Below, piece after piece: positions 28,191 through 54,665 of a stretch of DNA of 64,000 nucleotides; within the stretch, counting starts at the first letter, position 1, and each line of letters opens with the position of its first letter. A program made the translations under genes and the position numbers. Below the pieces are notes generated by a model. The model had not been told where the DNA came from, ran no database searches, and was given only the letters and a program-made list of their open reading frames with translations. The stretch comes from Polyangium jinanense. GTDB taxonomy: Bacteria; Myxococcota_A; Polyangia; Polyangiales; Polyangiaceae. The stretch spans positions 102,900-166,899 of the forward strand of contig NZ_JAGTJK010000012.1 of assembly GCF_028435265.1 (NCBI RefSeq), given 5' to 3'.

Positions 28191-28191
28191 C

Positions 28192-36094: not shown

Positions 36095-36114
36095 GCCGCG
36101 CGGAGGGTACGAAC

Positions 36115-37617: not shown

Positions 37618-37654
37618 CGGGCCTCGCGAATCGGTGTAGGGTACATCAGGATGT

Positions 37655-37690
37655 TGCCGTCCCGCGCTCGAAGGGAGCGCGCGGGCGGCG
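37655..37690 (+). terminator. Imperfect GC-rich hairpin between tssC and hcp (possible attenuator/processing site)
   Basis: cccgcgctc-gaaggga-gcgcgcggg inverted repeat in the 103-bp tssC-hcp spacer. No clear U-tract. Confidence 0.25.
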
Positions 37691-37720
37691 ACGGTCGACG
37701 GGGACGCGGAGGATTGCACG

Positions 37721-38215: not shown

Positions 38216-38251
38216 CCCGAGGACGATTCGGCGTCCCAGGGGAACGACAGA

Positions 38252-38728
38252 ATGGCGAAAGCGTGGGGAGCCACGAGCGCGGGCAGGGTTCCCCTGTTCG
38301 ACCGGCTGGTCGACGAGAACCCTGCTCAAAAACAGGAAGCCGTCCCCTATTGCACCCTCGATCGAGACGGGCTGCGCGCCTCGGTGGCCCGCGAGCTCGG
38401 TCGAATCCTCGGCACCCGCAGCCCCATCTCCGGCGACGAGGCTCTCTCCCGGCAGCGCACGACCATCGATTATGGTTTGCCCGACCTCGAGCTCGGCGGC
38501 CGTGCGCTCGTCCCGGAGGAGCTTCGCCGTCTCGTGCGCCTCGTGCAAAAGACGATCGAGGCGTACGAGCCGAGGCTCCAGAACGTACGCGTGGAAATCA
38601 AGCGATGCGAGGACGCGCCGCCGCATGCGCGCCTCGTGGTCGCGCTCTCGGCGACGCTCGTCACCGACGAGGTGCGTGAGCCCCTCTCGTTCGAGGCGCC
38701 GCTCGAAGGAGGCCCGGGGGCCGCATGA
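38252..38728 (+). CDS. tssE: Type VI secretion baseplate protein TssE (gp25-like)
   Basis: PLFDRLVDE..SV.RELGRILGTR...YGLPDL...RLV.L.IE.YEPRL..V.V matches the TssE/GPW-gp25 pattern. Confidence 0.85.
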   Translation: MAKAWGATSAGRVPLFDRLVDENPAQKQEAVPYCTLDRDGLRASVARELGRILGTRSPISGDEALSRQRTTIDYGLPDLELGGRALVPEELRRLVRLVQKTIEAYEPRLQNVRVEIKRCEDAPPHARLVVALSATLVTDEVREPLSFEAPLEGGPGAA

Positions 38729-40533
38729 GCAAGGGTGATCCGGATCGGGAAATGCTCGAGCTGTATGCGCGTGAGCTCGCGTATCTGCGCGAGCGTGGCG
38801 CCGAGTTCGCCAAGGATTATCCGAAGATCGCGGCGCGCCTCGGCACCTCGAACCAGGCCTCGTCCGATCCACACGTCGAGCGCCTGGTCGAGGCATTCGC
38901 GTTCCTCTCGGCGCGCCTCACGCGCGACATCGAGGCGGAGCTGCCGATTTACACGACCTCGCTGCTCGGCACCCTTTATCCGCAGCTCGCGTGTCCCGTG
39001 CCGGCGATGGCGATCGCCGGGTTCGAGATCGACCCGAAGGAGGCCAAGCTCGGCTCCGGGTACACGGTCGAGAAGCACACGCCGCTTTTCGCGGCCTCGC
39101 AAACCGGGCCGGTCTGTCATTTCCGCACCGCGTATCCGGTCACGCTCTGGCCGATCGAGATCGTCAATGCGGGCATGGTCCCGCCCGAGAACCTCGACGT
39201 TCCCTCGTGGCTGCTCACGAACGCGGCGGCGGCGCTGGAGATCGAGATCGCGACGGGCGGCGTTCCGCTCGACAAACTCGGCATGCGCTCGCTCCGCTTC
39301 CACATCACGGGCGGGGGCATGGGCGCGGCGCGCCTCTACGATCTGCTCGCGGCGCACGCCGTGCAGGTCCTCGTGGTCGGGGAAAAACCCTCGGAGGACT
39401 GGGCCTACGGAAAGATCCGGCCCGTCGGCTTCGAGGCGAACGAGGACGTCCTGCCGTATCCGCCGCACGCGCACCGCGGCCATCGCCTCGTGCAGGAGTA
39501 TTTCGCGTTCCCGGAGAAGTTCCATTTCTTCGACCTCGAACTGCCGAAGCTCCCGCCGCGCAAGAACGCGAAGATCCTCGTCCTCTTCGATCAGAAGCCG
39601 CCGGCCGGCGTCGCGGTTCGCCCGACGACGTTGAAGCTCGGCTGCACCCCGATCATCAACCTCTTCCCGCGCAGCGCCGAGCCCATCCGCGTCGATCACA
39701 CCCGGCCCGAATATCGCCTCGTCGCGGACGCGCGTCGCGAGCGGACCACGGAGATCCATTCGATCACGCGCGTCGCGGCCACGGCGCCCGGCGAGCCCAA
39801 GCAGATCGATTACGCGCCTTTCTTCTCGTTCGTGCACCACCGCGCGGGCGAAAGACCCCGCGCGTTCTGGCACGCGCGCCGCGTCGCCACGGGCCGCAAG
39901 GATCTGCCGGGCACCGACGTCTGGCTCACGTTCGTCGACACCGATTTCAAGCTCTCACGTCCCCCGTCGGAGACCGTTTACGCCGGCGTCCTCTGCACGA
40001 ACCGCGACCTCGCGAACGAGATCGCCAAGGACACGCAGCTCTCCCCCGAGCGCCCCGTCCCGGCCAAGAAAATCGTTTGTCTGACGAAACCAACCCCCCA
40101 GCGCGCCGCGCCGATGGGCGGCGAAGCGCTCTGGCGGCTCGTCTCGAACCTTTCGCAGAACCACCTCTCGATCACGGACGGCAAGACCGGCGTCGCCGCG
40201 CTCCGCGAGATCCTGCGCGCCTACGTCTTCGGCGATTCGCCCGACGCCGAGCGCCAGATCGACGCGCTCCTCGAAATTTCGAGCCGCGTGGTCACGCGTC
40301 GCCTCGGCAATGACGCGTGGCGGGGGTATTGCCGGGGCCTCGAGATCACGCTCACGCTCGCGGACGAGCAGTTCGCCGGATCGAGCCCGGTCCTTTTGGC
40401 CTCGGTCTTGAGCCGATTTTTCGCCTTGCAGGCGCACATCAATGCGTTCACCGAGCTCGTCCTGAAGCGCGCCTCGCGCGCGGAGGTCTGGAAACGATGG
40501 CCGCCCACGGCTGGCGAAAGAGCCCTTCTGTAG
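38725..40533 (+). CDS. tssF: Type VI secretion baseplate protein TssF
   Basis: N-terminus LELYARELAYLRERGAEFAKDYPKIAARLG..DPHVERLVEAFAFLSARL is the TssF signature. 602 aa. Confidence 0.9.
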   Translation: MSKGDPDREMLELYARELAYLRERGAEFAKDYPKIAARLGTSNQASSDPHVERLVEAFAFLSARLTRDIEAELPIYTTSLLGTLYPQLACPVPAMAIAGFEIDPKEAKLGSGYTVEKHTPLFAASQTGPVCHFRTAYPVTLWPIEIVNAGMVPPENLDVPSWLLTNAAAALEIEIATGGVPLDKLGMRSLRFHITGGGMGAARLYDLLAAHAVQVLVVGEKPSEDWAYGKIRPVGFEANEDVLPYPPHAHRGHRLVQEYFAFPEKFHFFDLELPKLPPRKNAKILVLFDQKPPAGVAVRPTTLKLGCTPIINLFPRSAEPIRVDHTRPEYRLVADARRERTTEIHSITRVAATAPGEPKQIDYAPFFSFVHHRAGERPRAFWHARRVATGRKDLPGTDVWLTFVDTDFKLSRPPSETVYAGVLCTNRDLANEIAKDTQLSPERPVPAKKIVCLTKPTPQRAAPMGGEALWRLVSNLSQNHLSITDGKTGVAALREILRAYVFGDSPDAERQIDALLEISSRVVTRRLGNDAWRGYCRGLEITLTLADEQFAGSSPVLLASVLSRFFALQAHINAFTELVLKRASRAEVWKRWPPTAGERALL

Positions 40534-41558
40534 AGGCCTGGCTCTTCGACGAGGGGCACGCCTTCGATTTTTATCAGGCCGTCTCCCTCCTCGAACGCTT
40601 TCGGGAAGGCGACGCCGTCCCCGTCGGCGAGGGCTCCGATCCTTCGCGCGAGTCCGTGCGATTCGCCGGGAGCATCGCGCTCGCCTTCCCCGAGACCGAC
40701 GTCGCGCGCATTCGCCCGCCGCACCGCGAACGCGAGCCCGCGCAGATGCTCGTGAACTTCCTCGGTCTCGGCGGCGCCCTCGGCCCACTGCCGCCGCCGA
40801 TCGTCGAGTCGATTTACATGCGCGCCGTCCGCGGCGACACCGCGGCGCGGGATTTCCTCGACATCTTCAACCATCGCCTCGTCTCGTTCGCATATCGCAT
40901 CCGCAAGAACCATCGCCTCGGCCTCGGCATCTCCTCGCCCGAAAAAGACGGCGCGGCGCGGCACCTCTTCGCGCTCATGGGCCTCGGCTTTCAGGCGCTC
41001 GAAGGCCGCCTCGCGGTCCAGGATCGCGCCCTGCTCGAACACGCGGCAAACCTCGGAAGCGAGTCCCGTTCGCTCGAAGGCCTCGTCGCCATTCTCCGCC
41101 GGCATTTCGGCGTCCCCATCGAGCCCATCCCGCTCACAGGCGCCTTTCACCCGATCGAGGAAAACGATCGCACGGCGATCGGCCGATCCGGTCAGAACCG
41201 CGCACTCGGCCGCGACGCATGTCTGGGGGGCCGTTTCTGGGATCAGGAGTCCACGTTCGATCTGCGCATCGGGCCCATGAAGCTCGATGAATTCCTGCGA
41301 TTCCTCCCGGACGGCGACGCGCTCCGGCCTCTCTGCTCCCTCGTCCGTTTTTATGCAGGCGCACGATTCCACTTTGGCCTCATCCTCGTGCTGGCCGAGG
41401 GCGAGGCGCCGCGGATCGAGCTCGGCCGCGCCACGTGCGCGCTCCTCGGCCAAATCGCCTGGCTCGGAAACGTGAACAAGCACGGCGGCAGGGTGCGCGA
41501 GGTGCGTTTGTCGCGTGCGGCCATTCGGAAAGGCCTCGGTGAGGCGCCGGGCGGCTGA
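40497..41558 (+). CDS. tssG: Type VI secretion baseplate protein TssG
   Basis: FDFYQAVSLLE motif. 353 aa. Overlaps the tssF 3' end. Confidence 0.85.
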   Translation: MAAHGWRKSPSVEAWLFDEGHAFDFYQAVSLLERFREGDAVPVGEGSDPSRESVRFAGSIALAFPETDVARIRPPHREREPAQMLVNFLGLGGALGPLPPPIVESIYMRAVRGDTAARDFLDIFNHRLVSFAYRIRKNHRLGLGISSPEKDGAARHLFALMGLGFQALEGRLAVQDRALLEHAANLGSESRSLEGLVAILRRHFGVPIEPIPLTGAFHPIEENDRTAIGRSGQNRALGRDACLGGRFWDQESTFDLRIGPMKLDEFLRFLPDGDALRPLCSLVRFYAGARFHFGLILVLAEGEAPRIELGRATCALLGQIAWLGNVNKHGGRVREVRLSRAAIRKGLGEAPGG

Positions 41559-41611: not shown

Positions 41612-44600
41612 ATGACGACTGCAGAACAGAGCCAGGGCGCCACGGAGAGCATTCCGAGCAAGCTCGGGAAGTTCGCCACGGAGCAGATCGACAAGGCCGA
41701 GGTCACGGTCACGAAGGGCGTCTCTACCGTCCGTGACTCCACGAACCAGATCATCAGCAAGGCCGAAGAGCAGATCCTCAAGCTCAACAAGGCCCTCTAC
41801 GAGACCAAGAACGGCATCTCGTCCGGCATCGACACGGCCATCAAGGAGACGGAAGGCCAGCTCAAAGGGATCACGCCCGAGCTCAAGAAGATGGGCGAGG
41901 ATGCGATCAAGACGGCCAAGGACAAACTCGACGGACTCGTCGACGAGGTCGAGGGCAAGCTCGAATCGCAAAAAGACTCGCTCGTCAAGACGGCGCAGGA
42001 TCAGATTCGGAACGCGGCCGATCAGGCGAAGGGCAAGATCGACGAGATCGGACAGCTCGGCGAGGATCAGGCGAAGAAGGTCCTCGATGCGGTCAAGACG
42101 CAGGCCGACACCGTCGATCAGAAGCTCGGCGATCTCGAGGGGCAGATCGACGGCAAGATCCAGGCGATCGGCGACGACGTGCGCGGCAAGTTCGAAGCGG
42201 CGCTCGCCAAGGTGCCGGATCACGACGGCGCGAAGGTCGAGATGTCGGCGAACGTCGACGCCGTCGTCGCGGAGCTGCGTAGTGCCACGAAGGACTCGAT
42301 CGAGCAGGCGCGCGAGACGCTCAAGTCGCTGGTCAAGCAGACCGACGACACGATCATGCAGACGATCGGCGACGTGCGGCGCGCGATCGGCGAGGTCCCC
42401 GCTCGCATCAACCAGTGTGCGCAGGACATCCTCGCGAAGGTCAATGACGCGATCCAGAAGACGATCGACGAGATCTCGAACCTCGCGCACGGGCTCGTGG
42501 CGCGCACGGCGGAGCTGCTCAACCAGGCGCTGCTCACGATCACGAGCACCGTCGACAAACTCCTCGCCGACGGCTTCGCGCTCGTGCGTGGGATCAAGGC
42601 GGATCTCGATCGTCTCCTCGACAAACTGCTCGAACAGATCCGGGATCTGACGCTCGGCACGCTGGAGGACGTCCGCAAGGCGGCGAACGAGCTACTCGGC
42701 ACGTTCGAGGCTGAATGCAAGAAGATCCTCCAGACGATGGAGGAGTCCGTCATCGGCTCGGTCGAGGAGCTCGGCGGCAAGATGAACGCCTCGATCAAGG
42801 CGCTCCAGGCCGACCTGAACCTCGATGCCGACAAGATCGTCCGGGACCTCGTGGCCGAGGGCGCGAAAGGGCACGACGACGCGCTCGCCGACTTCATCAG
42901 CGCTGGTTATTCCGAGGACACCTCGGTCATCCCCAAGATCCGGGCCAAGGGCGAGGCTGCGATCAAGCAGATCGAGGCCAAGACGAAGGCCCAAGGGGAG
43001 AAGCTGATCAAGGACTTCGAGATGCAGGCGACCCTGCTGAAGCCCAAGATCCAGGCGCAGGGTATCAAGGTCGTCGCGCAGATCGCCGCGCTCGGACCGA
43101 AGCTTGCGATGCAGGCGGTCCAGATTGCGACGAGCATCGCGTCGTCCATCAAGGACAAGGGCGAGGCGGTCAAGAAGACGTTCGAGGAGCTGCAAAAGAC
43201 GCTCGTCGACGCGATCACGAAGAAGATCCCCGATTACCTCGAAAACTGCAAGAAGCAGATCAAGGCCGCGGCCGATGCGCTCGTCGAGGCGGGCAAGACG
43301 TTCTACGAGAAGACGCTCGCCGACATCATGGGGGCGATCAAGGCGGCCGAGGCGCGGTTCAAGCAGCTTGCCTCGGAGATGAAGGACCTCATCGAGACGC
43401 AGGTCCTCGCGCTCGTGGCCTCCATTCGCAGGACGGTGGAGACGTCCATCCAGCGCTTCAAGGATCTCGGCGCCGCGTTCGAGGAAAAGACGAATGCGCT
43501 CGTCAACGACATCCCGGCGCGGCTCATCAAGCTGGAGCAGGTCGCGCGGCTCGCGGTCGAGCGCGAGATCACGCTGGCGAAGGGGCTCGCCAATGCGACG
43601 AAGGACGACATTCTCCTGAAGGCGCGGACGACGCTGTCGGAGATCAAAAAAGCGGCGTACGGGGTCCTCGGCGGCATCCGGGGCGATTTCGGCGCGGTGC
43701 AGGGATCGCTCGCGCTCATCGTCCCGGCGGGCGCGGGGCTCGACGCGGCGGGCGCGATCAACCTCGCGGTCTCGGGCGGGCTCGAAGGGATGATCGCGTC
43801 GGCGGCGAATGCGGCGCAGGCCGCGGTGACGGCGGGCGTGAATGCGGCCGAGGCCGTGAACAATGCAGCCGAGCAGGCGGCGGCCGCGATGAGCGCGGCT
43901 GGATTCGACGGCGCGGCGAAGTCATTGACGGACGTGCTCTCGCAGCAGATGGGCGAGGTGCGGACGGAGGGCGAGAAGGCCAAGAACGTCATTGCCGCGG
44001 CGAAGGAGAAGATGACGGCGGTCGCCAAGGAGGCGACGGACACCTGCACGCAGGCGGCGCAGGCGGCGCAGGCCGCGGCCGCGGAGGTCGTGGCGGCCGC
44101 GAATTCGACGGGCGACGCGATCAAGGCGTCGGCGGAGAACCTGACGAAGGGCCTCGAAAAGGCGAAGGACATCGTCAAGGATGCCGGCAAGGCCGCGATG
44201 CAATCGATGAAAGAGGCCCAGGACGTGCGCAAGGGAGGCGACGGCGCGCAAGCCGGCGCGGGTGCGCAGGCCAAGGCCGGCGGGGCGGATGGCGCGGCGG
44301 CGGGCGCGGATGCGGGCGGCGCGGATGGCTTGGCGGTGCCCGAGGGCGAGGCGGCGGCTCCGGAAGGGGAGGCGGCCGCGGCTCCGGGCGGCGCGGAGGC
44401 GGCTCCGGACGGCGCGGCGGCGGCTCCGGATGTCAAGGCAGCGGCTCCGGATGCCAAGGCGGCGGTTCCGGATGCCAAGGTGGCGGTTCCGGATGCCAAG
44501 GTGGCGGTTCCGGATGCCAAGGTGGCGGCTCCGGATGCCTCGAAATCGGCGCCGGATGTCCCGAAATCGGCGCCGGATGTCTCGAAACCGGAACTGGACG

Positions 44601-45289
44601 TCTCGAAACCGGAACCAGGCGCCGATGTAGCGGCGGTGGCCGCCAAGGTACCGGATCCGGCTGCCAAGGTAGCGGCTCCGGCCGCCAAGGTAGAGGTGCC
44701 GGCCGCCAAGGTAGAGGCGCCGGCCGCCAAGGTAGAGGCGCCGGCCGCCAAGGTAGAGGCGCCGGCCGCCAAGGTAGAAATTCCGGGCGCCCCGAAAGCG
44801 GCGCCGGCCGCCAAGGTAGAAATTCCGGCCGCCCCGAAGGCGGCGCCGGCCGCCAAGGTAGACATTCCGGCTGCCAAGGTAGACGTTCCGGCTGCCAAGG
44901 CGGTGCCCGGCGTGCCGGAAGGCAAGGCTCCGGCGCCCCCAGGCAAAGCTGCGATGCCGGAAGGCAAACCGCAGGTGCCCGAAGGCGGCATGCCCGGGGT
45001 GCCAAAAACCGGCGAAAAGCCCGCCTTTCCTCCCGCCCCCGCGCCTCAGGCCCCCGCGCCTCCCGCTCCGGCGGACGTGGCCCCCTTCGCGCCCGCGCCG
45101 AAGCCGCCGGCCGCGCCCGCCGTCCCTGCCGGCGCGAAACCCGCGCCCGCCGCGCCCGCCGCCCCCGTGATCCCTGCCGGCGCGAAACCCGCGCCCGCCG
45201 CGCCCGCGCCGCCCGCCACGCCCGCGGCCAAGCCCGTCGTTCCCGCCGCCCCCGGCAGCAAATGGCCTGGCAGCGGCAACAAGCCTTGA
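41612..45289 (+). CDS. Giant (1225 aa) all-helical repeat protein with C-terminal 7-aa tandem repeats and an Ala/Pro-rich tail. Function unknown. Located 53 bp after tssG
   Basis: No Cys/Trp-rich domains. K/E/D/A/Q-rich amphipathic 11/22-mer-like helices over ~1000 aa. Then (VPDAKVA)n and (PAAKVEA)n repeats, then a PAPAPKP-type tail. Weak GAGG RBS. Confidence 0.7.
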   Translation: MTTAEQSQGATESIPSKLGKFATEQIDKAEVTVTKGVSTVRDSTNQIISKAEEQILKLNKALYETKNGISSGIDTAIKETEGQLKGITPELKKMGEDAIKTAKDKLDGLVDEVEGKLESQKDSLVKTAQDQIRNAADQAKGKIDEIGQLGEDQAKKVLDAVKTQADTVDQKLGDLEGQIDGKIQAIGDDVRGKFEAALAKVPDHDGAKVEMSANVDAVVAELRSATKDSIEQARETLKSLVKQTDDTIMQTIGDVRRAIGEVPARINQCAQDILAKVNDAIQKTIDEISNLAHGLVARTAELLNQALLTITSTVDKLLADGFALVRGIKADLDRLLDKLLEQIRDLTLGTLEDVRKAANELLGTFEAECKKILQTMEESVIGSVEELGGKMNASIKALQADLNLDADKIVRDLVAEGAKGHDDALADFISAGYSEDTSVIPKIRAKGEAAIKQIEAKTKAQGEKLIKDFEMQATLLKPKIQAQGIKVVAQIAALGPKLAMQAVQIATSIASSIKDKGEAVKKTFEELQKTLVDAITKKIPDYLENCKKQIKAAADALVEAGKTFYEKTLADIMGAIKAAEARFKQLASEMKDLIETQVLALVASIRRTVETSIQRFKDLGAAFEEKTNALVNDIPARLIKLEQVARLAVEREITLAKGLANATKDDILLKARTTLSEIKKAAYGVLGGIRGDFGAVQGSLALIVPAGAGLDAAGAINLAVSGGLEGMIASAANAAQAAVTAGVNAAEAVNNAAEQAAAAMSAAGFDGAAKSLTDVLSQQMGEVRTEGEKAKNVIAAAKEKMTAVAKEATDTCTQAAQAAQAAAAEVVAAANSTGDAIKASAENLTKGLEKAKDIVKDAGKAAMQSMKEAQDVRKGGDGAQAGAGAQAKAGGADGAAAGADAGGADGLAVPEGEAAAPEGEAAAAPGGAEAAPDGAAAAPDVKAAAPDAKAAVPDAKVAVPDAKVAVPDAKVAAPDASKSAPDVPKSAPDVSKPELDVSKPEPGADVAAVAAKVPDPAAKVAAPAAKVEVPAAKVEAPAAKVEAPAAKVEAPAAKVEIPGAPKAAPAAKVEIPAAPKAAPAAKVDIPAAKVDVPAAKAVPGVPEGKAPAPPGKAAMPEGKPQVPEGGMPGVPKTGEKPAFPPAPAPQAPAPPAPADVAPFAPAPKPPAAPAVPAGAKPAPAAPAAPVIPAGAKPAPAAPAPPATPAAKPVVPAAPGSKWPGSGNKP
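44440..44900 (+). repeat. In-frame 21-bp tandem repeats (ggcggttccggatgccaaggt x4; gccggccgccaaggtagaggc x4 and variants)
   Basis: Direct reading of the sequence. The repeats encode (A/V)VPDAKV and APAAKVE heptads. Confidence 0.8.
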
Positions 45290-45296: not shown

Positions 45297-45686
45297 TCAG
45301 GGCACCTGCACCGTGACCTGCCCGGGGAACGAGATCTGAATCACCCCGCCCCACATGCACATCAGCTTCGAGCTGTTGTTCAGCGCGGGCATGTTCGCGA
45401 GCAGCACCGTTGGGGCACCGACGATCCACGGCGCCGGCGTGTTCGGAATGCACGGCATTGGCGTGAGCACGCCCATCGCCGCCGCCGTCGCCGCGGCCAC
45501 CGTCGGGTTCGCCAGGCTCTGACACATCCCGAACGGCAGCACGTTCAGCATGGGCTTGCCGTCCATGATGTTCGCCAGCGGCCCCGCGCTGTTCATCGTC
45601 CGGTTCGCGGGAAGCACCGTGAGCGAGCTCGGCGCCACGCCGAAGCTGCATTGCATCATCGCCCCCATGCATACGTGCTGGCCCAT
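45297..45686 (-). CDS. DUF4280-family PAAR-like protein (T6SS spike tip)
   Basis: VCMGAMMQCSFGVAPSSL.V...N......PLANIMD..P..NVLPFGMC.S.ANP.V...TAAAMGVLTPMPCIP.T..PW..GAPTVL....PAL...S...C.WGG.I.I.FPGQ matches the DUF4280 pattern. Confidence 0.85.
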   Translation of the reverse strand: MGQHVCMGAMMQCSFGVAPSSLTVLPANRTMNSAGPLANIMDGKPMLNVLPFGMCQSLANPTVAAATAAAMGVLTPMPCIPNTPAPWIVGAPTVLLANMPALNNSSKLMCMWGGVIQISFPGQVTVQVP

Positions 45687-45688
45687 CG

Positions 45689-46441
45689 TCAGCCTCCCGC
45701 GAGCTTGTTCACGACCTTGTCGAAGAAGGACTCTTTTTTCTCCTCCTTCGCCTTCGGAATGCCCTTGTCGTCGTACTCGACCTCGCCGCGCTTCTCGCCG
45801 TCCTTGTACGTCGCCTTCGCCTTCAGCTTGCCCTGCACGTCGTAGCTGAACGCGTCGCCTTGCTTCTTGCCGTTGTCATAGATGGCGCGCTCGCGGACCT
45901 CGCCGTTCGGGAAGTACTCGATCACCTCCCCGTGCAGTTTGTCGGCCTTGTAGCTCGCTTTGCGCAGGGTGTTGCCCTTGCCGTCGAGGAACAAGGATTC
46001 CCCTTCGAGCTTGCCGTTCTTGTAGAACGACCGGACGACCTCGTTGCCCTGCTCGTCGAACGACATGAACGGGCCGTTCTGCTTGCCCTTCTCGAAATGC
46101 ATGAGCGTCCGGAGCCGGCCGTCGTCGTAGAGCCGCGTCGGCCCGTGCTGCTCGCCCTTCGCGAACGTGACGATCTGCGAGACCTTGCCGTTCTCGTCTA
46201 CGATCTTCGTCTCGCCGTGGAGCACGCCGTCCTGGAATGACGAACGCTCGACCTCGCGTCCTTCCGGATCGTACGTGATCGACAAACCGTGCAGCTTGCC
46301 GTTCTTGTAATTCGCCCGGTGCGCGATCTGCTTTTCGGTCTCCCCGTACTGGACGAACTCGCCGTGGAGCACGCCGTCTTCCATCTCGAACCGGGAGATC
46401 AGCTTGCCGTTCTCGTCGCGCTCTTCGTGGTCGGTCGGCAT
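45689..46441 (-). CDS. MORN-variant (YwqK-family) repeat protein
   Basis: Eight repeats of Y/F-K-N/D-G-K-x-H/Q-G-x-x-x-x-Y/F-D-x-x-G. Confidence 0.8.
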   Translation of the reverse strand: MPTDHEERDENGKLISRFEMEDGVLHGEFVQYGETEKQIAHRANYKNGKLHGLSITYDPEGREVERSSFQDGVLHGETKIVDENGKVSQIVTFAKGEQHGPTRLYDDGRLRTLMHFEKGKQNGPFMSFDEQGNEVVRSFYKNGKLEGESLFLDGKGNTLRKASYKADKLHGEVIEYFPNGEVRERAIYDNGKKQGDAFSYDVQGKLKAKATYKDGEKRGEVEYDDKGIPKAKEEKKESFFDKVVNKLAGG

Positions 46442-46451
46442 CGGATCCTCG

Positions 46452-48452
46452 CTAATTGATCTTCACCATGCCGCCCTTCAAGGTCAGCATGCCGCCGCCC
46501 TCCACCGCCGCCTGCGCGCCGCCCTTCGCCTTCAGCGCGATCGCGCCCTCGAGCGTCATGTTCGTCCCGCCCTTGGCCTTGAAATCGGTGCCGGCCTTCA
46601 GGTCCATCGCCGTCCCGGACTCGGCCTTGAAATCCGTGCCCGCCTTCATCGAAAACGCCTGCTTGGCCTTGATCGTGACGCTCTTCGCCTCGATCACGAG
46701 GTCGCCGTCGACCTTGATCGTGTAGTTCTTCGTCACCTTGTAATCGAGGTTCGCCTTGTTCGTGTGCGCCTCGTCCTTGGTGACCGTGAGCGTGCGTTTG
46801 CCCTTCACGCTGTGCGTCTCGTCGCCCTTGTCGACCTTGATCGTGCGGTTGCCCTTGGTGACCGTGAGCGTCTCGTCGCCCTCCTCGATCGTCACCTTCC
46901 GCTCGTTTTTGACGTTCTTCGTGTAATCGTGGAGGACCTTGACCGTCCAGTCGTTCTCCACCTCGAAGAGCATGTCCTTCTGGGCGTGCGCGTAAAACTC
47001 CTCGTTATCCTTCTTGTCGTCGAAGCGCAGTTCGTTCCCCGCCTCGCCCTCCTTCGACGATCGGCTCAGGATCGTGCTCTTCGTCTGCGCGCCCGGCAGC
47101 CCATAAGGCACCGTCTGCTCGGCGTTGTACACCGAGCCCGTCACGAGCGGCCTGTCCGGGTCGCCGTCGATGAAGCTCACGACGACCTCCTGCCCGATGC
47201 GCGGCAAGAACCACGCGCCCCAGCTCTTGCCCGCCCACGCCTGCACGACGCGCACGAAGCACGAGCTCTTGTCGTCCTTCGCGCCCTTGCGATCCCAGTG
47301 GAACTGGACCTTGATGCGCCCGTATTCGTCGGTCCACTGCTCCTCGCCGCTCTTGCCCACGACGACGGCCGTCTGCGTGCCGGGGATCGCGGGCTTCGGC
47401 GTGATGCGCGGCGGGCGGTACGACGTCTTCTTCGGGAACGCCTCGAAGGTATTCGTGTACCCCTCCTGGCTTGCGCGGTGCATGATCGAGGTGAGAACCC
47501 AGTCCGTGTTCGCGTCGTCCCGATCGTGCTCGTCGAGCTTGAACGCGTGCCCCGCCGTGAAGGCGCGGCAGCTCGATGTACCCGACAAACGCACCGCCCG
47601 CGCCTCCTCGGCCTCGATGCGGAGCTTCGCGCGCGTGTCGCCCGGGCTTTTCTCGATGTGCCCGCCCGGGTACTCGAAGAGCTCGAGCTTGGCCGTTTCG
47701 CCCGAGACCTCCGCGAGCAGCGACGTGCTCGGCATCTCGAAGTTGTAATCCGTCGACGCGTACTTTCCCGCGACGATCTCCTCTTCGAGCGTGCACTCGA
47801 GGACGGCGTCCTCGTCCGTCGACGTGGAGAACTGCTCGACGAACCGCGCCTTGTCGAGGTTCGGGCACGGCGCGGCCGACGCGCTGTCGTCCGAGAGCAC
47901 CATCACGTGCTTGCCGTCCTCGTGCTTGAAATAATAATGGATCCCCTCGTCCTCCATGAGCCGCGACACGAAATCGAGCGCGGTCTCCTGGTACTGCACG
48001 CAGTAGGGGCGCGGGGTGTAGGAGCCCTTCAGCGAATCCTTGAAGTGCTCGCCCGACGAGAAGCCGAGCTCCTGGAAGAGCGCCTTCAGGATGTCGGGCA
48101 CGCTCTTCTCCTGGAAGATCCGGCAATCGCTGGTCTTGCCGAGCAGCCATAACCACGGGTGCAGCTCCGCGCGGTAACGCGTCTGCTTGCCGACGCGCCC
48201 CGCCTGGACGAACCGCGTGCAGATCCCGTGGATGAAGCGCGGCTTCTCCTTGGCCATGCCCCGGATCGTCAAGGTCACGCCCTTGCCGACGATCGCCTTG
48301 AAGTCGAGCGCCTTCTCCGGCGACAAAAGCTCGAGCTCGAAGCGGAAGAGCCCCGAGATCCGCTCTTCGCCATGCAGATCGACGAGCAGCACCGCGTCCG
48401 CGCCGAAGGGCGTCGAGATGGCGATGCCGAGGGTGCCCTGCGGATAAGGCAT
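46452..48452 (-). CDS. vgrG: Type VI secretion spike protein VgrG (TssI), 666 aa, no C-terminal toxin extension
   Basis: The N-terminal gp27-like and gp5-like regions are conserved (..TRYRAELHPWLWLL..; ..IKVQFHWDR...SCFVRV.Q.WAG..WGA.F.PRIGQEVVVSFIDGDPDRP). C-terminal beta-helix repeats. Confidence 0.9.
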   Translation of the reverse strand: MPYPQGTLGIAISTPFGADAVLLVDLHGEERISGLFRFELELLSPEKALDFKAIVGKGVTLTIRGMAKEKPRFIHGICTRFVQAGRVGKQTRYRAELHPWLWLLGKTSDCRIFQEKSVPDILKALFQELGFSSGEHFKDSLKGSYTPRPYCVQYQETALDFVSRLMEDEGIHYYFKHEDGKHVMVLSDDSASAAPCPNLDKARFVEQFSTSTDEDAVLECTLEEEIVAGKYASTDYNFEMPSTSLLAEVSGETAKLELFEYPGGHIEKSPGDTRAKLRIEAEEARAVRLSGTSSCRAFTAGHAFKLDEHDRDDANTDWVLTSIMHRASQEGYTNTFEAFPKKTSYRPPRITPKPAIPGTQTAVVVGKSGEEQWTDEYGRIKVQFHWDRKGAKDDKSSCFVRVVQAWAGKSWGAWFLPRIGQEVVVSFIDGDPDRPLVTGSVYNAEQTVPYGLPGAQTKSTILSRSSKEGEAGNELRFDDKKDNEEFYAHAQKDMLFEVENDWTVKVLHDYTKNVKNERKVTIEEGDETLTVTKGNRTIKVDKGDETHSVKGKRTLTVTKDEAHTNKANLDYKVTKNYTIKVDGDLVIEAKSVTIKAKQAFSMKAGTDFKAESGTAMDLKAGTDFKAKGGTNMTLEGAIALKAKGGAQAAVEGGGMLTLKGGMVKIN

Positions 48453-48570: not shown

Positions 48571-49860
48571 ATGACGTTCTTCCGAACGGGCCATGGTCTC
48601 TTCCAGTTCGGGAGGCCGAAGCGCCTCGACAGGCACGGGATCCTCGCCTTTCTGCGCAGCGTCGCGACCGATCGTGGAGGCATGCTGGAGCTTCGGCGCA
48701 TCCTCGCCGACGAGCTGCATCGCACGTCGATCCACAACATGCGCGACGAGCTCGTGATCGAGCAGCTCGCGGACCGTTACCTGCGCGGCTCGCTCACGCT
48801 CGTCCACGTGCGCCCGCTCGACATCGGGATCGAGCTCGAGGGCTTCCTCGTCGAAGGCGCGGACGCCACGCCTTTGACCGGCCCGAAGAACGAGGCCGGC
48901 GACCTGCGCCCCGCGCCCGAGGTCCCACCCGAATATCCGGTCCTCGCGCGTGTCGAGTCCGATCAGATCATCGACTCCACGCTGAAGCTCGTCGCGAAAC
49001 TCGGCGATCTGCTCTTCGGGGCGTTTGGCCTGCAAAAACGTCCCTCGACGCTCGCGAAGGAGCTCGTGCTGCTCGCCGCCGAAGAGGCGAGCGGCGTGAA
49101 GCTCGCGAACACGAAGGTCGATCTCGATCTCGGGTTGCAACTGCATCCGCAGGGCAAGATCCTGCTGCCCGATCCGCAAGTGAAGGACGCGTACGTCGCC
49201 GCGGCGGCCGAGATCGCGGCGGGGCCGCGTCCGGCGGCAAAGGGTCTCATCGATTTGATGTGGCCGCTCACGCGGGTCGACACGAACCGCCGCTTCGACA
49301 ATCCCGTCGGGGCCGGGCCGGTGAAGAGCGATCAAAGCGACGGGAAGAAGGGCCCCGAGGCCGCGCTGGATTGGGTCGAAATCGAGCTCGTCGACGACGG
49401 CGATCCGCCGAAGCCCTACGCCGGCGCGCGGTATCGAATCGAGCTCGAGGGCGGCAAGGTGATCGAGGGGACGCTCGACGACGACGGCAAGGCGCGCGTC
49501 GATGGGATTCCGTCGGGCAGCGGGACCGTCACGTTCCCGGACATCGACGCCGGGTTTTGGGGGACGAACGGCGCAGGCAGCGCAGGCGCCGCCGCGCCGC
49601 CGCCTCCGTCTTCGTCGTCGTCCTCCGCGGTCTCCGCGGACGAGGCGTGGGTCGAGATCGAGCTCGTCGACGACGACGACCCGCCGAAGCCCCGCGCCGG
49701 CGCGCGATATCGTATCGAGCTCGAGGGCGGCAAGGTGGTCGAGGGGACGCTCGACGACCAAGGGAAAGCGCGCGTCGACGGGATTCCGTCGGGCAGCGGG
49801 ACCGTCACGTTCCCGGATATCGATGGCAGCACGTGGGGGCCGGGAGAACGAGGCACATGA
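48571..49860 (+). CDS. Hypothetical protein (429 aa) with two C-terminal copies of a ~55-aa repeat (W.EIELVDD.DPPKP.AGARYRIELEGGKV.EGTLDD.GKARVDGIPSGSGTVTFPDID)
   Basis: AGGAAG RBS. The internal duplication is exact at many positions. No catalytic motif recognised. Divergent from vgrG. Confidence 0.55.
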   Translation: MTFFRTGHGLFQFGRPKRLDRHGILAFLRSVATDRGGMLELRRILADELHRTSIHNMRDELVIEQLADRYLRGSLTLVHVRPLDIGIELEGFLVEGADATPLTGPKNEAGDLRPAPEVPPEYPVLARVESDQIIDSTLKLVAKLGDLLFGAFGLQKRPSTLAKELVLLAAEEASGVKLANTKVDLDLGLQLHPQGKILLPDPQVKDAYVAAAAEIAAGPRPAAKGLIDLMWPLTRVDTNRRFDNPVGAGPVKSDQSDGKKGPEAALDWVEIELVDDGDPPKPYAGARYRIELEGGKVIEGTLDDDGKARVDGIPSGSGTVTFPDIDAGFWGTNGAGSAGAAAPPPPSSSSSSAVSADEAWVEIELVDDDDPPKPRAGARYRIELEGGKVVEGTLDDQGKARVDGIPSGSGTVTFPDIDGSTWGPGERGT

Positions 49861-50072
49861 GCGACGAAGTCCTTTACTCCGATCTCGGGATTCCCGAGTG
49901 GGATCCGGACCGCGAACCTGCGGCGGAGCCCGAGGCCGGCGCGTCCCCCCCGGGGCCGCCCGCGCAGGGCTCCATCGAGGATATGGGCGTGCGCTGCGTG
50001 GCGCGGTCGGCGGACGGGACACGAGCGGTGTGTACGCTCGAAGTGCTGCGGCCGTTTGTCCTGTCCGCTTGA
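49857..50072 (+). CDS. Small acidic hypothetical protein (71 aa), translationally coupled (ATGA) to the upstream gene
   Basis: The ATG overlaps the stop of 48571-49860. Short ORF, so weak support. Confidence 0.3.
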   Translation: MSDEVLYSDLGIPEWDPDREPAAEPEAGASPPGPPAQGSIEDMGVRCVARSADGTRAVCTLEVLRPFVLSA

Positions 50073-50098: not shown

Positions 50099-53000
50099 AT
50101 GAGCAAGAAGATGCCGACGAAAGGGGTGCTCACGTTCGAGGCCGAGGGCAGCGACTCGAGCAGCTCGCCTTATTACTCGCGCGTGCTCCACCACCCGACG
50201 ATGGGGTCGGGCGTGACGATCGGCCGCGGCTACGACATGAAGGACCGTTCGTCCGCGGACGTCGAAAAAGATTTCGTCGCGGCGGGTCTGTCCGCGGATG
50301 TCGCGAAGAAGTATGCCAAAGGCGCGGGGCTCACGGGGTCCGAGGCGCGGACGTTCGTCACGAACAACAAGGGCGTCTTGCCCGAGCTCACGTGGGACCA
50401 GCAGCTCGCGCTCTTCGAGTCCACGTATGCGTGGCACGAGAAGGACGTCAAGCGCATCTGCGACAAGGAAGATTGTCAGAACATCTACGGCGTCGTGGAC
50501 TTCAAGACGCTCCACCCGCGCATCCTCGACGTGCTCGTGGATCTCAGGTTCCGCGGCGACTACACGCCCGCGTCGCGCAAGCGCATCCAGAAGCTCGTCG
50601 TCGAGAACGATTATGCGCGCTTCCGCGCGGACCTCTCCAATCGGTCGAACTGGAGCGCGGTGCCGGAGGACCGTTTCGATCGGCGGAGCAAGTACCTGAA
50701 GGACGCGCCGCAGACGGACGACACGGCCGATCACGAGGATGTGACGTACAGCACGCCGACCAAATCGTTTGACCTCAAGACGATGGGCGAGGCAGAGCTC
50801 TACGATCACCTCCGGAGCGTGTGGAAGGCGGAGCAGAAGGCGTTCGGCAACGAGGGCAAACCCGAATTCGACTTCCAGGACGAGGAGGGCCGCGTGAACC
50901 TGCTCGGCGCGCGCGGGTTCGACGCCGACCAGATGGTGCCCGTGCCGAGCACGAACACGAAATACGACGACACGCTTTTCCTCGTCTACAAGAAGGACGG
51001 CGCGAAGCACGTCGAGAAGTTCCACTACTCGAGCGAGTGGACGAGGACGGGCTCGAAGGGGGCCGTGATCATCCTCGGGCAGCACAAGTACTGCCTGGCG
51101 ATCCACAAGAAGCTCAAGGAAGACGGCACGCCCTACCCGTACAACAAGCTCCCCGCGTGGCGCGATTACTACAACACGAACAAGACGCAGCCGCCGGGAG
51201 CCGGTTACCGCGCATTGAACCCGGACCCGACGGTCGGCATCGTCCGCGTGCACGATGCAAGCGCGGCAGGATCCGTGGGCGCTGAGACCACGGGGGTCAC
51301 GCAGAACGCCTCGATCAACATCCATTACGGCGGCGAGGTGCCGAGCGGCTGGACGCCCAGCAAGGGGTGGTCCGACGGGTGCCAGGTCCTCATGCGCGGC
51401 GACCGGTACCTGCGGTTCATGGAGGTCATCGAGTCCGATCACTCCCTGAAGGGCACGATCAACAACGAGCTCGCGCCCAAGCCTTCGGCCGACGGGAAGC
51501 GGTCGCTCATCTACACGCTCGTCAAGGGCGACTCCCTCGCGCCGAGGGACGCGCCGTCCATGGGGTTCCCCGTGGACATCGGCAAAGGGAAGAAGATCGA
51601 CAATTCGACCACGCTCGCGATGTTCGAGCACACCGAGAAGACGATCGACAGCGGCTATTTCCCTCTCGGGACGAATACGACCTGGCACGGCGGCGCCCAT
51701 TTGCACGTCGCCGAGGGGACCGCGGTCCACGCGATGTTCGACGGGCGGATCGTCGCCGCGCGGCTGCCCGCGGCGGCGGACAAATCGAAGGGGGCCTTCG
51801 GCAGCAGGAACTTCATCCTGATCCGGCACGAGATCGACGGGGATCGCTTGAACAAGGCGAATGCCCTGCTCAAGCGCACCCTCATCGGGTACACGATCCG
51901 CGCCGAGACGCTCGTGCTCCGCAAGGAGCCGGGCAACGCCGCGGCCGTCGTCGATACCTTGAAGGTGGGCGACGAGGTGCTGCTGAAGACCGTCCCCCAT
52001 CCGAAGAAGGACGGCGTCTCGTGGGCGCACGTCGTCGTTTCCAAATCGGCGAAGGAAGGCCTGAAGGACAAGGTCGGCTATGTGGCCGCCACGTCCTTGC
52101 TCGTCACGCCCAGGTACGCGCCGCCGAAGGAGCGCGTGAAGCCGTCCGAGACGCGGGTGGTGTATTCGCTCTACATGCACCTCGGGCCCCAGGCGCTCGA
52201 CACGACGAACTCCGTCCTCGCCTCGATCCCCTGGGTCTCGGGGGCGCAGTGGAGCGTGTCGGACGACGTCCGGCTCCGCAGCGCGCCGGGCGTCCCGGAT
52301 CCGGACAAGACGCAGATCGGTACGCTCGTCTCCGGCGACACGTTCGTGCAGCTCACCCCCGACCTCGTGACCGCGGGGAGTTATCAGTGGATGAAGGTCC
52401 GCGTCACCAAGGCGAAAGACGCGAAGCTCGCGAACAAGGAGGGGTTCGTCGCGAAGCTCGACAAACGCATGAGCCTCACGAAGGCGCCGAGCGCGGAGAT
52501 CCTCGACAAGCTCAAGTCCGGCGACGTGGTCAAGCTCGACAAACCGGTGGTCGCGGGGGAGCAGATCTGGACGGCGGGCACGATGACGGGGGCCTCGGGT
52601 GGGGCGCAGGCGGGCATTCACTGGGAGGTCTTCTCGGAGCAGCCCCTCTTCCCGGACTGGCCGTCCGCCGACGATCCCGACGAAAATCTGAACATGGACG
52701 TGAAGAAGATTTTCGACATGATCGAGCAGGAGTTCTGGGGGTACAACGACACGATCTCCGCGTCCGAGCTGAACGATTTCTACAAGAACAATCCCAAGGC
52801 GAAATCGCTGCGATACTACGCGTGCCGGTTCATGAGCGAGTGGGGCTGCGACATCGACAAGGCCGTCGCGCAGATCCAATCGAGGGGGCTCTACAGCGTC
52901 TCGGGGCTCGCCGACAAGATGCGGCCCTACCTGTGGTGGAAGGAGGCGGAGGGCAAGAAGGTGGAGCTGCCGAAGAGCCCGATCGTCTGGCACTACAACC

Positions 53001-53986
53001 CGATCGGGTTCGTCTACGCGATGACCAAGATCGAGGAGACCCCCGCCCCGCGCACCGAGCCGGCGCAGACGAAGGAGGATCCGAAGGTCGCCACGGAGAC
53101 GCAATGGTCCGGCGTCGCGTACGGCGATTACGTGCTGAAGAAGGGCGACGACGACGGCAAGCAGACCTGGGGCGGCCTCGCGCGCAAGGAGAAGGGCACA
53201 TACGTGGTCGAGCTGCAGAAGGATCTGCTCGAGCTCGGCTACTGGATCAGCGCCGCGAGCTCGAACAAGGGGATGAACGCCGACGGCAATTTCGGCGGCA
53301 CGGTGCGCGGCGCCGTCATGCTCTTCCAGCGCGAGCACGGGTTGAAGGAGACGGGGGAGGTCGACGCGGCGACGGCGAAGCTCATCAAGGAAAAGACGAA
53401 GGTAGCGAACTACGAGCGGCCCGGGCACAAGGCGGGCGATTACGGTCAGTTTTATCAGCTCCCGCCTTCGGAGAACTACGAGCGGTACGACGAGGTGCGC
53501 GACGACAATTGCATCCCGAAGGACAACTGGGGCACGAAGGAGATGATCAAGATGCTCACCTCCGCGGGCAAGGCCTGGAAGGAGCAAGGAAAGTCGCTGT
53601 TCCTGGTCGGGGACGTCTCGCTCTACAACGGTGGCAAGATGGACCCGCACAAGTCCCACCAGGACGGCACCGGCGTGGACCTCGACTCCGATGAGCTGTG
53701 CAGCATCAACCGGGCGACGTTCAAGAAAGAGGAGTCCCTGTCGCTCACGCAGCTGCTCATCAAGCACGGCGCGAAGCGCGTCCTCTTCAATTGCAAGTAC
53801 GTGACCGACCAGGTGCCCGAGGCGTTCGCGTTATCGGGGCACCACCACCATTACCACGTCGACGTGAAGCCGGGGCTGAAGACGAACGAGCACCCCGAGG
53901 AGGAGTGCAAGTGGTGCCACAAGTCGGTGTACAAGAAGTGCGACTACGCCAAGAAGGCGAAGCGCTCGGACTCGGAGCTCACCTGA
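50099..53986 (+). CDS. Multi-domain peptidoglycan hydrolase (1295 aa): N-terminal lysozyme-like (phage/pesticin-type) domain, M23/LytM-like domain with atypical metal-ligand motifs, PG-binding domain and C-terminal M15/VanY-like (LAS) peptidase domain
   Basis: GSGVTIGRGYDM..LVDLRFRGDY (T4-lysozyme-like). EGTAVHAMFDGRIVAA / YSLYMHLG / TGASGGAQAGIHWEVF (M23 pattern with HLHF replaced by IHWE). LQKDLLELGYW..DGNFGG.VRGAVMLFQREHGL (PG_binding_1). KSHQDGTGVDLD...HHHYHVD (SxHxxGxAxD-like M15 motif). GGAGA RBS. Confidence 0.75.
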   Translation: MSKKMPTKGVLTFEAEGSDSSSSPYYSRVLHHPTMGSGVTIGRGYDMKDRSSADVEKDFVAAGLSADVAKKYAKGAGLTGSEARTFVTNNKGVLPELTWDQQLALFESTYAWHEKDVKRICDKEDCQNIYGVVDFKTLHPRILDVLVDLRFRGDYTPASRKRIQKLVVENDYARFRADLSNRSNWSAVPEDRFDRRSKYLKDAPQTDDTADHEDVTYSTPTKSFDLKTMGEAELYDHLRSVWKAEQKAFGNEGKPEFDFQDEEGRVNLLGARGFDADQMVPVPSTNTKYDDTLFLVYKKDGAKHVEKFHYSSEWTRTGSKGAVIILGQHKYCLAIHKKLKEDGTPYPYNKLPAWRDYYNTNKTQPPGAGYRALNPDPTVGIVRVHDASAAGSVGAETTGVTQNASINIHYGGEVPSGWTPSKGWSDGCQVLMRGDRYLRFMEVIESDHSLKGTINNELAPKPSADGKRSLIYTLVKGDSLAPRDAPSMGFPVDIGKGKKIDNSTTLAMFEHTEKTIDSGYFPLGTNTTWHGGAHLHVAEGTAVHAMFDGRIVAARLPAAADKSKGAFGSRNFILIRHEIDGDRLNKANALLKRTLIGYTIRAETLVLRKEPGNAAAVVDTLKVGDEVLLKTVPHPKKDGVSWAHVVVSKSAKEGLKDKVGYVAATSLLVTPRYAPPKERVKPSETRVVYSLYMHLGPQALDTTNSVLASIPWVSGAQWSVSDDVRLRSAPGVPDPDKTQIGTLVSGDTFVQLTPDLVTAGSYQWMKVRVTKAKDAKLANKEGFVAKLDKRMSLTKAPSAEILDKLKSGDVVKLDKPVVAGEQIWTAGTMTGASGGAQAGIHWEVFSEQPLFPDWPSADDPDENLNMDVKKIFDMIEQEFWGYNDTISASELNDFYKNNPKAKSLRYYACRFMSEWGCDIDKAVAQIQSRGLYSVSGLADKMRPYLWWKEAEGKKVELPKSPIVWHYNPIGFVYAMTKIEETPAPRTEPAQTKEDPKVATETQWSGVAYGDYVLKKGDDDGKQTWGGLARKEKGTYVVELQKDLLELGYWISAASSNKGMNADGNFGGTVRGAVMLFQREHGLKETGEVDAATAKLIKEKTKVANYERPGHKAGDYGQFYQLPPSENYERYDEVRDDNCIPKDNWGTKEMIKMLTSAGKAWKEQGKSLFLVGDVSLYNGGKMDPHKSHQDGTGVDLDSDELCSINRATFKKEESLSLTQLLIKHGAKRVLFNCKYVTDQVPEAFALSGHHHHYHVDVKPGLKTNEHPEEECKWCHKSVYKKCDYAKKAKRSDSELT

Positions 53987-53990: not shown

Positions 53991-54665
53991 CTAGAGCCCG
54001 TACACCTTCGCGAGCGCCTTCTGCGTCGTCGCGTCGTACTTGCCCGTCACGGAGATCTTTTCGGCGCGCTGGAAGGCCTCGATCGCCGCGGTCGTCGCCT
54101 CGTCGAGCGTGCCGCTCGGCTCGTCGGCATGAAGCCCGAGGTTCTTGAGGCGCGTTTGCGCCCCGCGGATCGTGTCGATCGGCTCGAGCTCGCCGAGCGC
54201 GAGCTTGTACGTTTGTCGCCGGTTCGGCAGCTTCAGCACCGCCTCGGCCTGATCCGCCGGCACCTCGGCTTCCAGTGTCCCGTCGTCCCCTGTCGTCCCC
54301 TCGAGCTTGCGCTCGCCGCACTCGATCTCCCAGGGCTCGTTCGCGAGCGGCTCCTGGCCCGCGGTGAGCTTCAGGTAGACCCGGACCTTTTCGCGCTTGA
54401 CCACGAACCTGTGCGACTTGCCCGTCTCGATCGGCGACGGCTTCGGCTTCGGCTGCGGCACCGTCACCTTGTCGCCCGGCGCGAGCACGTTCGGATCCTT
54501 GCGCAGCTTGCGCAGCGCCGCGTTCTCCGGCGCCTCCCATACCGTCTTCCACGGAAGACCGTATTTCGCCGCGATCGTCGCGATGCACTCCCCCGCCTGG
54601 ACGTCGTGTGTCGTGCCTGCCATGGCGATTCCCAGGCGATGATACACGTCGCGCTGTCCGATCAC
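53991..54665 (-). CDS. LysM + PG-binding-domain protein carrying the same ~55-aa repeat found in 48571-49860
   Basis: LysM (HDVQAGECIATIAAKYGLPWKTVW...LAPGDKVTVP). Repeat-like core (..WEIECGERKLEGTTGDDGTLEAEVP). C-terminal PG_binding_1 (IDTIRGAQTRLKNLGLHADEPSGTLDEATTAAIEAFQ). Convergent with the hydrolase gene, 4 bp apart. Confidence 0.7.
   Translation of the reverse strand: MIGQRDVYHRLGIAMAGTTHDVQAGECIATIAAKYGLPWKTVWEAPENAALRKLRKDPNVLAPGDKVTVPQPKPKPSPIETGKSHRFVVKREKVRVYLKLTAGQEPLANEPWEIECGERKLEGTTGDDGTLEAEVPADQAEAVLKLPNRRQTYKLALGELEPIDTIRGAQTRLKNLGLHADEPSGTLDEATTAAIEAFQRAEKISVTGKYDATTQKALAKVYGL

Follow-up and report, generated by a model that had tools for sequence, protein, structure and literature searches.

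The question raised by this locus is what a MORN-repeat protein does when its gene is placed between the spike and tip genes of a type VI secretion system (T6SS). The locus lies in a 64,000-nucleotide stretch of Polyangium jinanense DNA (contig NZ_JAGTJK010000012.1, positions 102,900 to 166,899), referred to below as the window, and consists of a vgrG gene followed by a gene for a MORN_2-repeat protein and a gene for a DUF4280 PAAR-like protein. The initial annotation of this DNA suggested that the MORN protein serves as an adaptor or chaperone rather than as an immunity protein, and that the cargo is encoded outside the operon and may be a convergent giant helical protein or a divergent peptidoglycan hydrolase. 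Based on synteny and sequence comparison, we consider it probable, with moderate confidence, that the MORN protein is itself a spike-carried, secreted, non-enzymatic cargo of the type represented by TseF of Pseudomonas aeruginosa and TeoL of Cupriavidus necator. An adaptor with an unknown cargo is thereby replaced by a testable assignment, namely a TseF/TeoL-type passenger together with a neighboring strain-variable peptidoglycan-hydrolase cassette.

The three proposed open reading frames (ORFs) were recovered on the minus strand (Table 1). A GC content at third codon positions (GC3) of 0.91-0.94, compared to an overall GC of about 0.68, indicates that all three are genuine genes. The gap between vgrG and the MORN gene is 10 nt and that between the MORN and DUF4280 genes is 2 nt, and each junction carries a Shine-Dalgarno sequence (GAGGA and GGGAGG), which points to one translationally coupled operon. 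A promoter and terminator scan of positions 45000-50200 gave signals no better than those in shuffled sequence. A full T6SS core cluster lies beside the operon on the plus strand (Table 1). The window is 99.5% identical to one contig of assembly GCA_028435365.1, and one of its proteins has a 100% identical match in an entry for P. jinanense.

The VgrG is short and carries no fused toxin, as previously suggested, since no domain follows the VgrG core. Matches to Phage_GPD (3.5e-97), Phage_base_V, Gp5_trimer_C and TIGR03361 (3.8e-183) provide the gp27/gp5 hub, the oligonucleotide/oligosaccharide-binding (OB) fold and the beta-helix that define TssI, and the C terminus is a plain beta-helix ending in GGGMLTLKGGMVKIN. 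The protein is 44% identical to P. aeruginosa VgrG3 and collinear with it from end to end (666 versus 668 aa). Its terminal KGGMVKIN is common to other VgrGs, both those encoded in vgrG-MORN-DUF4280 trios and those followed directly by a DUF4280 gene. The description of the DUF4280 protein as a stand-alone PAAR-like protein also holds, as it is encoded by a separate ORF, matches PF14107 (1.1e-35) and shows similarity to IglG, a PAAR-like protein of Francisella (3.1e-17). Four of its five cysteines fall in columns that are invariant in an 11-sequence alignment, and four conserved cysteines are the hallmark of the DUF4280/IglG family (Lays et al. 2016).

The product of the middle gene is a MORN-repeat array with neither an enzymatic domain nor a signal peptide as read from its sequence, a charged N terminus (MPTDHEERDENGK) and MORN_2 (PF07661, 1.4e-18) as its sole significant Pfam match. 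The eight repeats originally counted are present as GxxxG signatures; the count was slightly low, as a degenerate repeat (ADKLHG) brings the number to nine and a partial tenth is added to these. The AlphaFold2 model, with a mean predicted local distance difference test score (pLDDT) of 95.9, shows 19 strands, with residues 239-247 forming a C-terminal helix, and its best fold matches are MORN1 and junctophilin. A sequence search of the PDB returned the MORN region of SET7/9 only, and a TseF structure was not found there. The C-terminal helix is amphipathic and forms a motif in the family (SFFDKVVNKLAGG, ILDRLQKLVRGS, RLVKHLEKWVRG, FSRRLERWVRG, MLAKALKTIRGGK) that is shared by Polyangium, Cupriavidus (TeoL type), Paraburkholderia, Duganella, Azohydromonas and Gemmatimonadota and is missing, in the same family comparison, from the MORN proteins of Azospirillum and Pyrinomonadaceae.

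Sequence similarity of the MORN protein alone is of limited use for assigning it to a family. A homology search with this protein through a word index returned mostly generic MORN_2 proteins, whose contexts were unrelated to T6SS (a marine contig, a giant-virus-like contig and housekeeping neighborhoods of Bacteroidota), and a profile built from the syntenic MORN members gave no separation of the TseF/TeoL family from generic MORN_2 proteins. The MORN alignment contains no stretch conserved enough for scanning genomes. Relatives of the operon were collected with the DUF4280 protein, by tblastn in plasmid and megaplasmid records and by a genome scan with a DUF4280 alignment, which covered one genome per species and gave at least 593 relatives, the best 80 of which were taken. 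The tblastn search found copies in Paraburkholderia, Cupriavidus, Azospirillum and one P. aeruginosa record, and the DUF4280 proteins of these trios are 62-69% identical to that of the window. Local tblastn of six records placed VgrG (40-45% identity), MORN (27-32%) and DUF4280 (62-69%) genes next to one another; over the trios compared, the MORN proteins occupying this slot are 27-33% identical to the window protein.

Synteny of the MORN-DUF4280 pair was also surveyed in the genome scan, and a collinear trio with strong MORN scores was found at about 15 of the best 80 DUF4280 loci, in three Polyangia, Duganella, Azohydromonas, other Burkholderiales, Gemmatimonadota and Pyrinomonadaceae (Acidobacteriota). 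When the ORFs on either side were clustered, tssEFG-clpV-vgrG-MORN-DUF4280-...-tssKLM emerged as the commonest order, which places the MORN gene inside the structural cluster. The annotation of the T6SS-b cluster of P. phymatum reads vgrG, YwqK and PAAR-like, and the P. aeruginosa record has tssH, two genes, tssI (vgrG3), a 178-aa "YwqK family antitoxin" and DUF4280, with the flanking genes pvdQ and lldA indicating that this record is the chromosomal H3-T6SS region. The MORN gene thus recurs in this position in no fewer than four phyla (Proteobacteria, Myxococcota, Gemmatimonadota and Acidobacteriota), and the trio is a conserved unit of one T6SS subtype, of which the Polyangium copy is new and the kind already known. 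The MORN family is locked into this trio across the four phyla.

Three observations on individual loci stand beside this survey. At the Azospirillum argentinense locus, a 328-aa ORF (L013:10585-11571) that looks like a transposase by eye lies between the MORN gene and an inverted DUF4280 gene. Six loci of Chromatiales and other Gammaproteobacteria (L023, L038, L040, L045, L051 and L065) encode VgrGs with a Cys-rich tail (..GTPFCEKCE..); these have a non-MORN gene of about 600 bp before DUF4280, which may be a third intervening accessory type. The gene just upstream of P. aeruginosa vgrG3 (L004:12997-14064, L102:2257-3324) is annotated as an M91-family zinc metallopeptidase and, by position, may correspond to the reported H3 effector TepB, in which case the P. 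aeruginosa trio also adjoins a separate effector.

Two members of this syntenic family have been studied experimentally. TseF (PA2374) is a MORN-motif protein encoded next to vgrG3 that is reported to undergo H3-T6SS-dependent secretion, to bind VgrG3 and to link PQS-containing vesicles (PQS, Pseudomonas quinolone signal) to FptA and OprF (Lin et al. 2017, PMC5379069). The P. aeruginosa H3-T6SS genes vgrG3 (PA2373)-tseF-PA2375 form the same trio as that of Polyangium, with VgrG 44% identical over its full length and DUF4280 64% identical. Like the window protein, TseF consists of MORN repeats, lacks both an enzymatic domain and a partner immunity gene, and is named a YwqK family antitoxin in RefSeq. 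However, TseF is shorter (178 versus 250 aa, about three fewer repeats), and the identity between the two MORN proteins is 29% (E 3e-17), dominated by the repeat consensus. Unlike the Polyangium operon, PA2375 is inverted relative to tseF; in turn, Polyangium differs from P. aeruginosa H3 in having no clpV between tssG and vgrG and in the inversion of its vgrG operon relative to the core.

The second member is TeoL (Reut_A1725) of the C. necator T6SS1, a lipopolysaccharide (LPS)-binding, vesicle-recruiting effector whose secretion is reported to be tssM1-dependent and whose gene lies in the order clpV1 (A1727), vgrG1 (A1726), teoL (A1725) ... tssM1 (A1715) (Li et al. 2021, PMC8776902). The published teoL reverse primer matches exactly to L008:9971-9996, the 3' end of a MORN ORF of Cupriavidus sp. 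P-10, and the forward primer matches the start of the same ORF except for one C in a C-run. This ORF (L008:9280-9996) lies between vgrG and DUF4280, and the encoded protein begins with MHATAP and ends with LERWVRG. On the basis of these primer-matched gene ends, TeoL appears to be a TseF-family MORN protein. The Cupriavidus protein is 27% identical to the window MORN protein and lacks one internal repeat relative to it, and its C-terminal helix (..RLERWVRG) resembles that of the window protein (..KVVNKLAGG). TseF and TeoL, studied separately and both reported as secreted, non-toxic and vesicle-recruiting, would on these sequence grounds belong to one MORN family; in the literature examined, no statement of their homology was found, nor was TeoL described there as a MORN protein or a TseF homolog.

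The assignment of the Polyangium protein to the TseF/TeoL family is based on its conserved position, the collinear flanking VgrG and DUF4280 genes and the C-terminal helix motif, and the two experimental precedents within this syntenic family are the reason for reading it as cargo. The suggestion of a cargo encoded elsewhere than in the operon is consequently not upheld, as the MORN protein is a syntenic homolog of two proteins reported to be T6SS-secreted, one of which, TseF, is reported to bind VgrG3. Divergence among the Polyangium loci also fits a surface-interacting passenger: the MORN proteins (94, 90 and 73% identity) have changed faster than the VgrGs (98.5, 96 and 84%) and the DUF4280 proteins (100, 98 and 85%), a pattern typical of cargo surfaces. 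Most organisms with the trio presumably lack PQS, so the conserved function of the family would not be PQS-specific, which bears on the disputed role of TseF.

Several points weigh against this assignment. The identity to TseF and to the TeoL ortholog is just 27-29% and is largely repeat consensus, generic MORN_2 proteins outside a T6SS context score nearly as well, and TeoL was compared at its gene ends only. The precedents for secretion and binding come from non-myxobacterial members (P. aeruginosa and C. necator), and their ligands, PQS and a given O-antigen, are species-specific and not transferable to Polyangium. Furthermore, the biological activity of TseF was called contentious in a 2025 review, and the retention of a MORN gene in the structural cluster across phyla is rather what one would expect of an accessory component than of a typical accessory effector. 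Our confidence is held to a moderate level because of the contentious activity of TseF, the species-specific ligands and the equal plausibility of a co-secreted accessory for a gene fixed in the core cluster across phyla.

That last consideration leads to an alternative that we regard as rather unlikely but by no means negligible, in which the MORN protein is a non-toxic adaptor or chaperone that stabilizes the VgrG-DUF4280 tip or bridges cargo such as the cassette proteins, and is perhaps co-secreted with no extracellular function. The position of its gene between vgrG and the PAAR-like gene is the one taken by known tip accessories, and its retention in the core structural cluster of several phyla and its constancy while the neighboring toxin cassette changes are in line with such a role, as are a fold that is a protein-binding scaffold and the reported binding of VgrG3 by TseF, whose effector role is disputed. 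The DUF2169 chaperones of VgrG-DUF4150 (PIPY) tips (Sachar et al. 2025, PMC11883445) are likewise tip-linked accessories encoded beside VgrG, and the Bacteroides adaptor Ate3, found with Pte3 (DUF4280), is likewise genetically linked to VgrG and a PAAR-like tip (PMC13402684). However, the novel fold of DUF2169 and the open beta-barrel of Ate3 are unrelated to MORN, and the MORN protein has no Pfam similarity to DUF4123/Tap, DUF1795/Eag or DUF2169. DUF2169 is found strictly together with its tip type. DUF4280 tips, by contrast, occur with or without a MORN gene: VgrGs with the same ending (GGGMLTLKGGxVKIN) are followed directly by DUF4280, without a MORN gene, at eight or more loci, including in Acidobacteriaceae and Bryobacteraceae, and Caballeronia clusters of the same kind also lack it. 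Tip assembly can therefore do without a MORN protein. The adaptor or chaperone role originally proposed is unlikely in its strict, DUF2169-like form, and the protein may yet be an adaptor or co-secreted accessory. The reported secretion and extracellular activity of TseF and TeoL, and the presence in the cassette of an adaptor-like protein of its own with transthyretin-like domains, also speak against the accessory role.

An unexpected pointer to a direct link between DUF4280 and MORN proteins comes from outside T6SS. In Bacilli, at 13 of the 80 DUF4280 loci, the gene directly downstream of DUF4280 encodes a membrane-anchored protein of 560-800 aa whose MORN repeats are of the classical type (PF02493), and in Clostridia, six of the 80 have a similar MORN protein encoded 1.3-3.5 kb upstream. 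The Bacilli DUF4280 genes are 70-73% identical to the query alignment, and no VgrG was found in the 12-kb stretches around these 19 loci. In a neighbor-joining tree without bootstrap values, the Firmicute DUF4280 proteins cluster beside those of the trios and most of the DUF4280 proteins encoded directly after vgrG fall elsewhere, with P. aeruginosa and two Pyrinomonadaceae loci as exceptions. These findings point to a direct association of DUF4280 with MORN proteins of greater age or breadth than the T6SS trio, which leaves the accessory or adaptor reading alive. We also entertain, as a speculative and fairly doubtful extension, that the DUF4280 cone and the MORN ribbon form an old, VgrG-independent partnership, that the main conserved role of TseF/TeoL-type proteins is to attach to the DUF4280 tip, where they would serve as structural or targeting accessories, and that the iron and vesicle phenotypes are lineage-specific additions. 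If this is true, the Firmicute pairs mark an undescribed non-T6SS use of PAAR-like proteins; the linkage is in any case a lead on the role of such proteins in bacteria without T6SS. No paper in the literature searched names DUF4280 and MORN together. There is a modest degree of novelty in the Firmicute association, as in the wider synteny and the link to TeoL.

The RefSeq name of such proteins implies another role, that of a YwqK-type immunity protein or antitoxin against a nearby or distant toxin. The name reflects membership in Pfam MORN_2, the repeat type also found in YwqK of the Bacillus subtilis YwqJK module, and sources call proteins of this kind "YwqK family antitoxin". Unlike in YwqJK, the Polyangium MORN gene has no adjacent YwqJ-like toxin and lies in a T6SS spike operon, where the upstream VgrG is toxin-less and the downstream gene is DUF4280, so that no toxin gene precedes it. 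Without a signal peptide, the protein could not protect the periplasm from the adjacent peptidoglycan hydrolase. It also remains the same where strains differ in the toxin of the cassette, and in P. aeruginosa the same slot is filled by TseF, for which no partner toxin is reported. We therefore consider immunity extremely improbable, and the initial view that the protein is unlikely to be an immunity protein is supported by the missing signal peptide, the missing preceding toxin gene, this constancy and the shared slot in at least four phyla.

If the MORN protein is a TseF/TeoL-type passenger, the operon would encode both an entire puncturing tip and the passenger that it carries. A blunt-ended VgrG3-like trimer would be capped by the Cys-containing DUF4280 protein as a PAAR-like cone, and the MORN protein, predicted to be a single-layer beta-hairpin ribbon without an enzymatic domain, would bind the VgrG/DUF4280 spike non-covalently, possibly via its C-terminal amphipathic helix, and be fired out with the spike. 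Its extracellular role would be that of a binding protein: by analogy with TseF (PQS) and TeoL (LPS O-antigen), it may attach outer-membrane vesicles or membrane material to receptors in the outer membrane of the producing cell. We infer secretion, VgrG binding and vesicle recruitment of the Polyangium protein from this analogy, and docking through the helix is a possible role suggested by the conserved motif. The 1295-aa peptidoglycan hydrolase would be a second, toxic cargo, recruited probably via the transthyretin-like domains of the protein encoded next to vgrG.

Table 1. Coordinates of the vgrG-MORN-DUF4280 operon, its neighbors in the window and the DUF4280-MORN loci of Firmicutes.
Feature	Position	Strand	Remarks
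T6SS core: tssK, L, M, A, B, C, hcp, tssE, F, G	28174..41558	+	Pfam matches
1225-aa helical, apolipoprotein-like protein with Pro/Ala-rich tail	41612..45289	+	convergent on the operon; sub-threshold Pfam matches only
DUF4280 PAAR-like tip protein, stand-alone	45297..45686	-	129 aa; four conserved cysteine columns
MORN_2-repeat protein	45689..46441	-	250 aa; 9 repeats, partial tenth and C-terminal amphipathic helix
vgrG (TssI)	46452..48452	-	666 aa; VgrG3-like blunt-ended spike, C-terminal effector domain absent
Gene divergent from vgrG	48571..49860	+	429 aa from M41 of a 469-aa ORF; probable cargo adaptor
71-aa ORF	49857..50072	+	start overlaps preceding stop; 71-aa gene called there in near-identical assembly L002
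1295-aa multi-domain peptidoglycan hydrolase, candidate polymorphic T6SS toxin	50099..53986	+	PG_binding_1 4.3e-12, Peptidase_M74 1.8e-07
224-aa PG_binding_1 protein (210 aa from M at 54623)	53991..54665	-	PG_binding_1 2.9e-12, C-terminal; LysM-like N terminus by eye
Firmicute DUF4280-MORN loci	L025:5998-8318, L086:2877-6384, L027, 29, 32, 33, 35, 37, 39, 41, 50, 52, 61, 68, 83, 90, 94, 96, 97

The genes divergent from vgrG form a strain-variable cassette. In two other Polyangium-like sequences, vgrG-MORN-DUF4280 is retained with nucleotide identities of 97% and 88%, and both sequences diverge fully from the window at about 49331-49347, inside the gene divergent from vgrG; similarity of one of them, L003, resumes at about 54624. 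The variable block lies between a methyltransferase gene and vgrG and corresponds to 49331-54624 in the window, L003:329-6357 and L001:1-2994, with the 224-aa PG_binding_1 protein as its end in the window. The 429-aa protein encoded next to vgrG has a conserved, Polyangium-specific N-terminal part of about 250 aa and a strain-variable C terminus, in which two transthyretin/prealbumin-like repeats of about 60 aa are encoded (49372-49547 and 49648-49823). Its AlphaFold2 model is only locally confident (pLDDT 68.5, predicted template modeling score 0.26) and was used just for the two beta-sandwich domains at residues 267-321 and 359-413, and in a paralog the repeats carry the Pfam label prealbumin/CarboxypepD_reg-like. 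In other phyla, the same repeat stands at the C terminus of VgrGs (Pigmentiphaga, Solibacteraceae) and of PAAR proteins (P0176, P0177), and at L060:9444-12377 and L098:10582-12378 VgrGs ending in a transthyretin-like domain are followed by homologs of the 224-aa protein.

The cassette of L003 encodes a 280-aa version of the 429-aa protein, a 260-aa protein and a 1707-aa protein, without the transthyretin-like repeats and without the 224-aa protein. The 1295-aa protein, which has a C-terminal LAS/M74-like metallopeptidase, and the 1707-aa protein of L003 are alike at residues of about 207-578 only (50% identity), and polymorphic toxins typically show this pattern, in which a shared, here putative, loading part is joined to a different predicted toxic part. 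The divergent peptidoglycan hydrolase was accordingly well chosen as a cargo candidate, given its strain-variable cassette and polymorphic-toxin architecture. On the basis of the strain variability, the polymorphic hydrolase and the fusion of transthyretin-like domains to VgrG and PAAR proteins elsewhere, the divergent cassette is probably a second, toxic cargo set with its own adaptor.

The other cargo candidate originally named, the convergent 1225-aa helical protein, finds no support. It is very unlikely that this protein is the real cargo and the MORN protein its loader, even though its gene adjoins the operon, with the stop codons 7 nt apart, and its apolipoprotein-like amphipathic helices, which score below the Pfam thresholds, could act on membranes. 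The gene is on the opposite strand and extends the tssG operon, and a known T6SS cargo marker is absent. It is present in L001 and L002 and missing from the related Polyangium locus L021, in which tssG and the DUF4280 gene converge as immediate neighbors, and neither a homolog in any other trio locus nor a T6SS-linked relative in the 99 loci examined was found. Its membership in the module being without support, the protein is treated here as context only. The 1225-aa protein fills the slot after tssG, where most other trio clusters have clpV; tblastn with ClpV3 found no ClpV/TssH homolog within the 64-kb window. Elsewhere in the window, small high-GC3 ORFs at 57-63 kb have no Pfam matches and are probably spurious; they lie opposite a 2092-aa plus-strand ORF (57347-63625), which does have a match and carries a MopE-type metal-binding motif.

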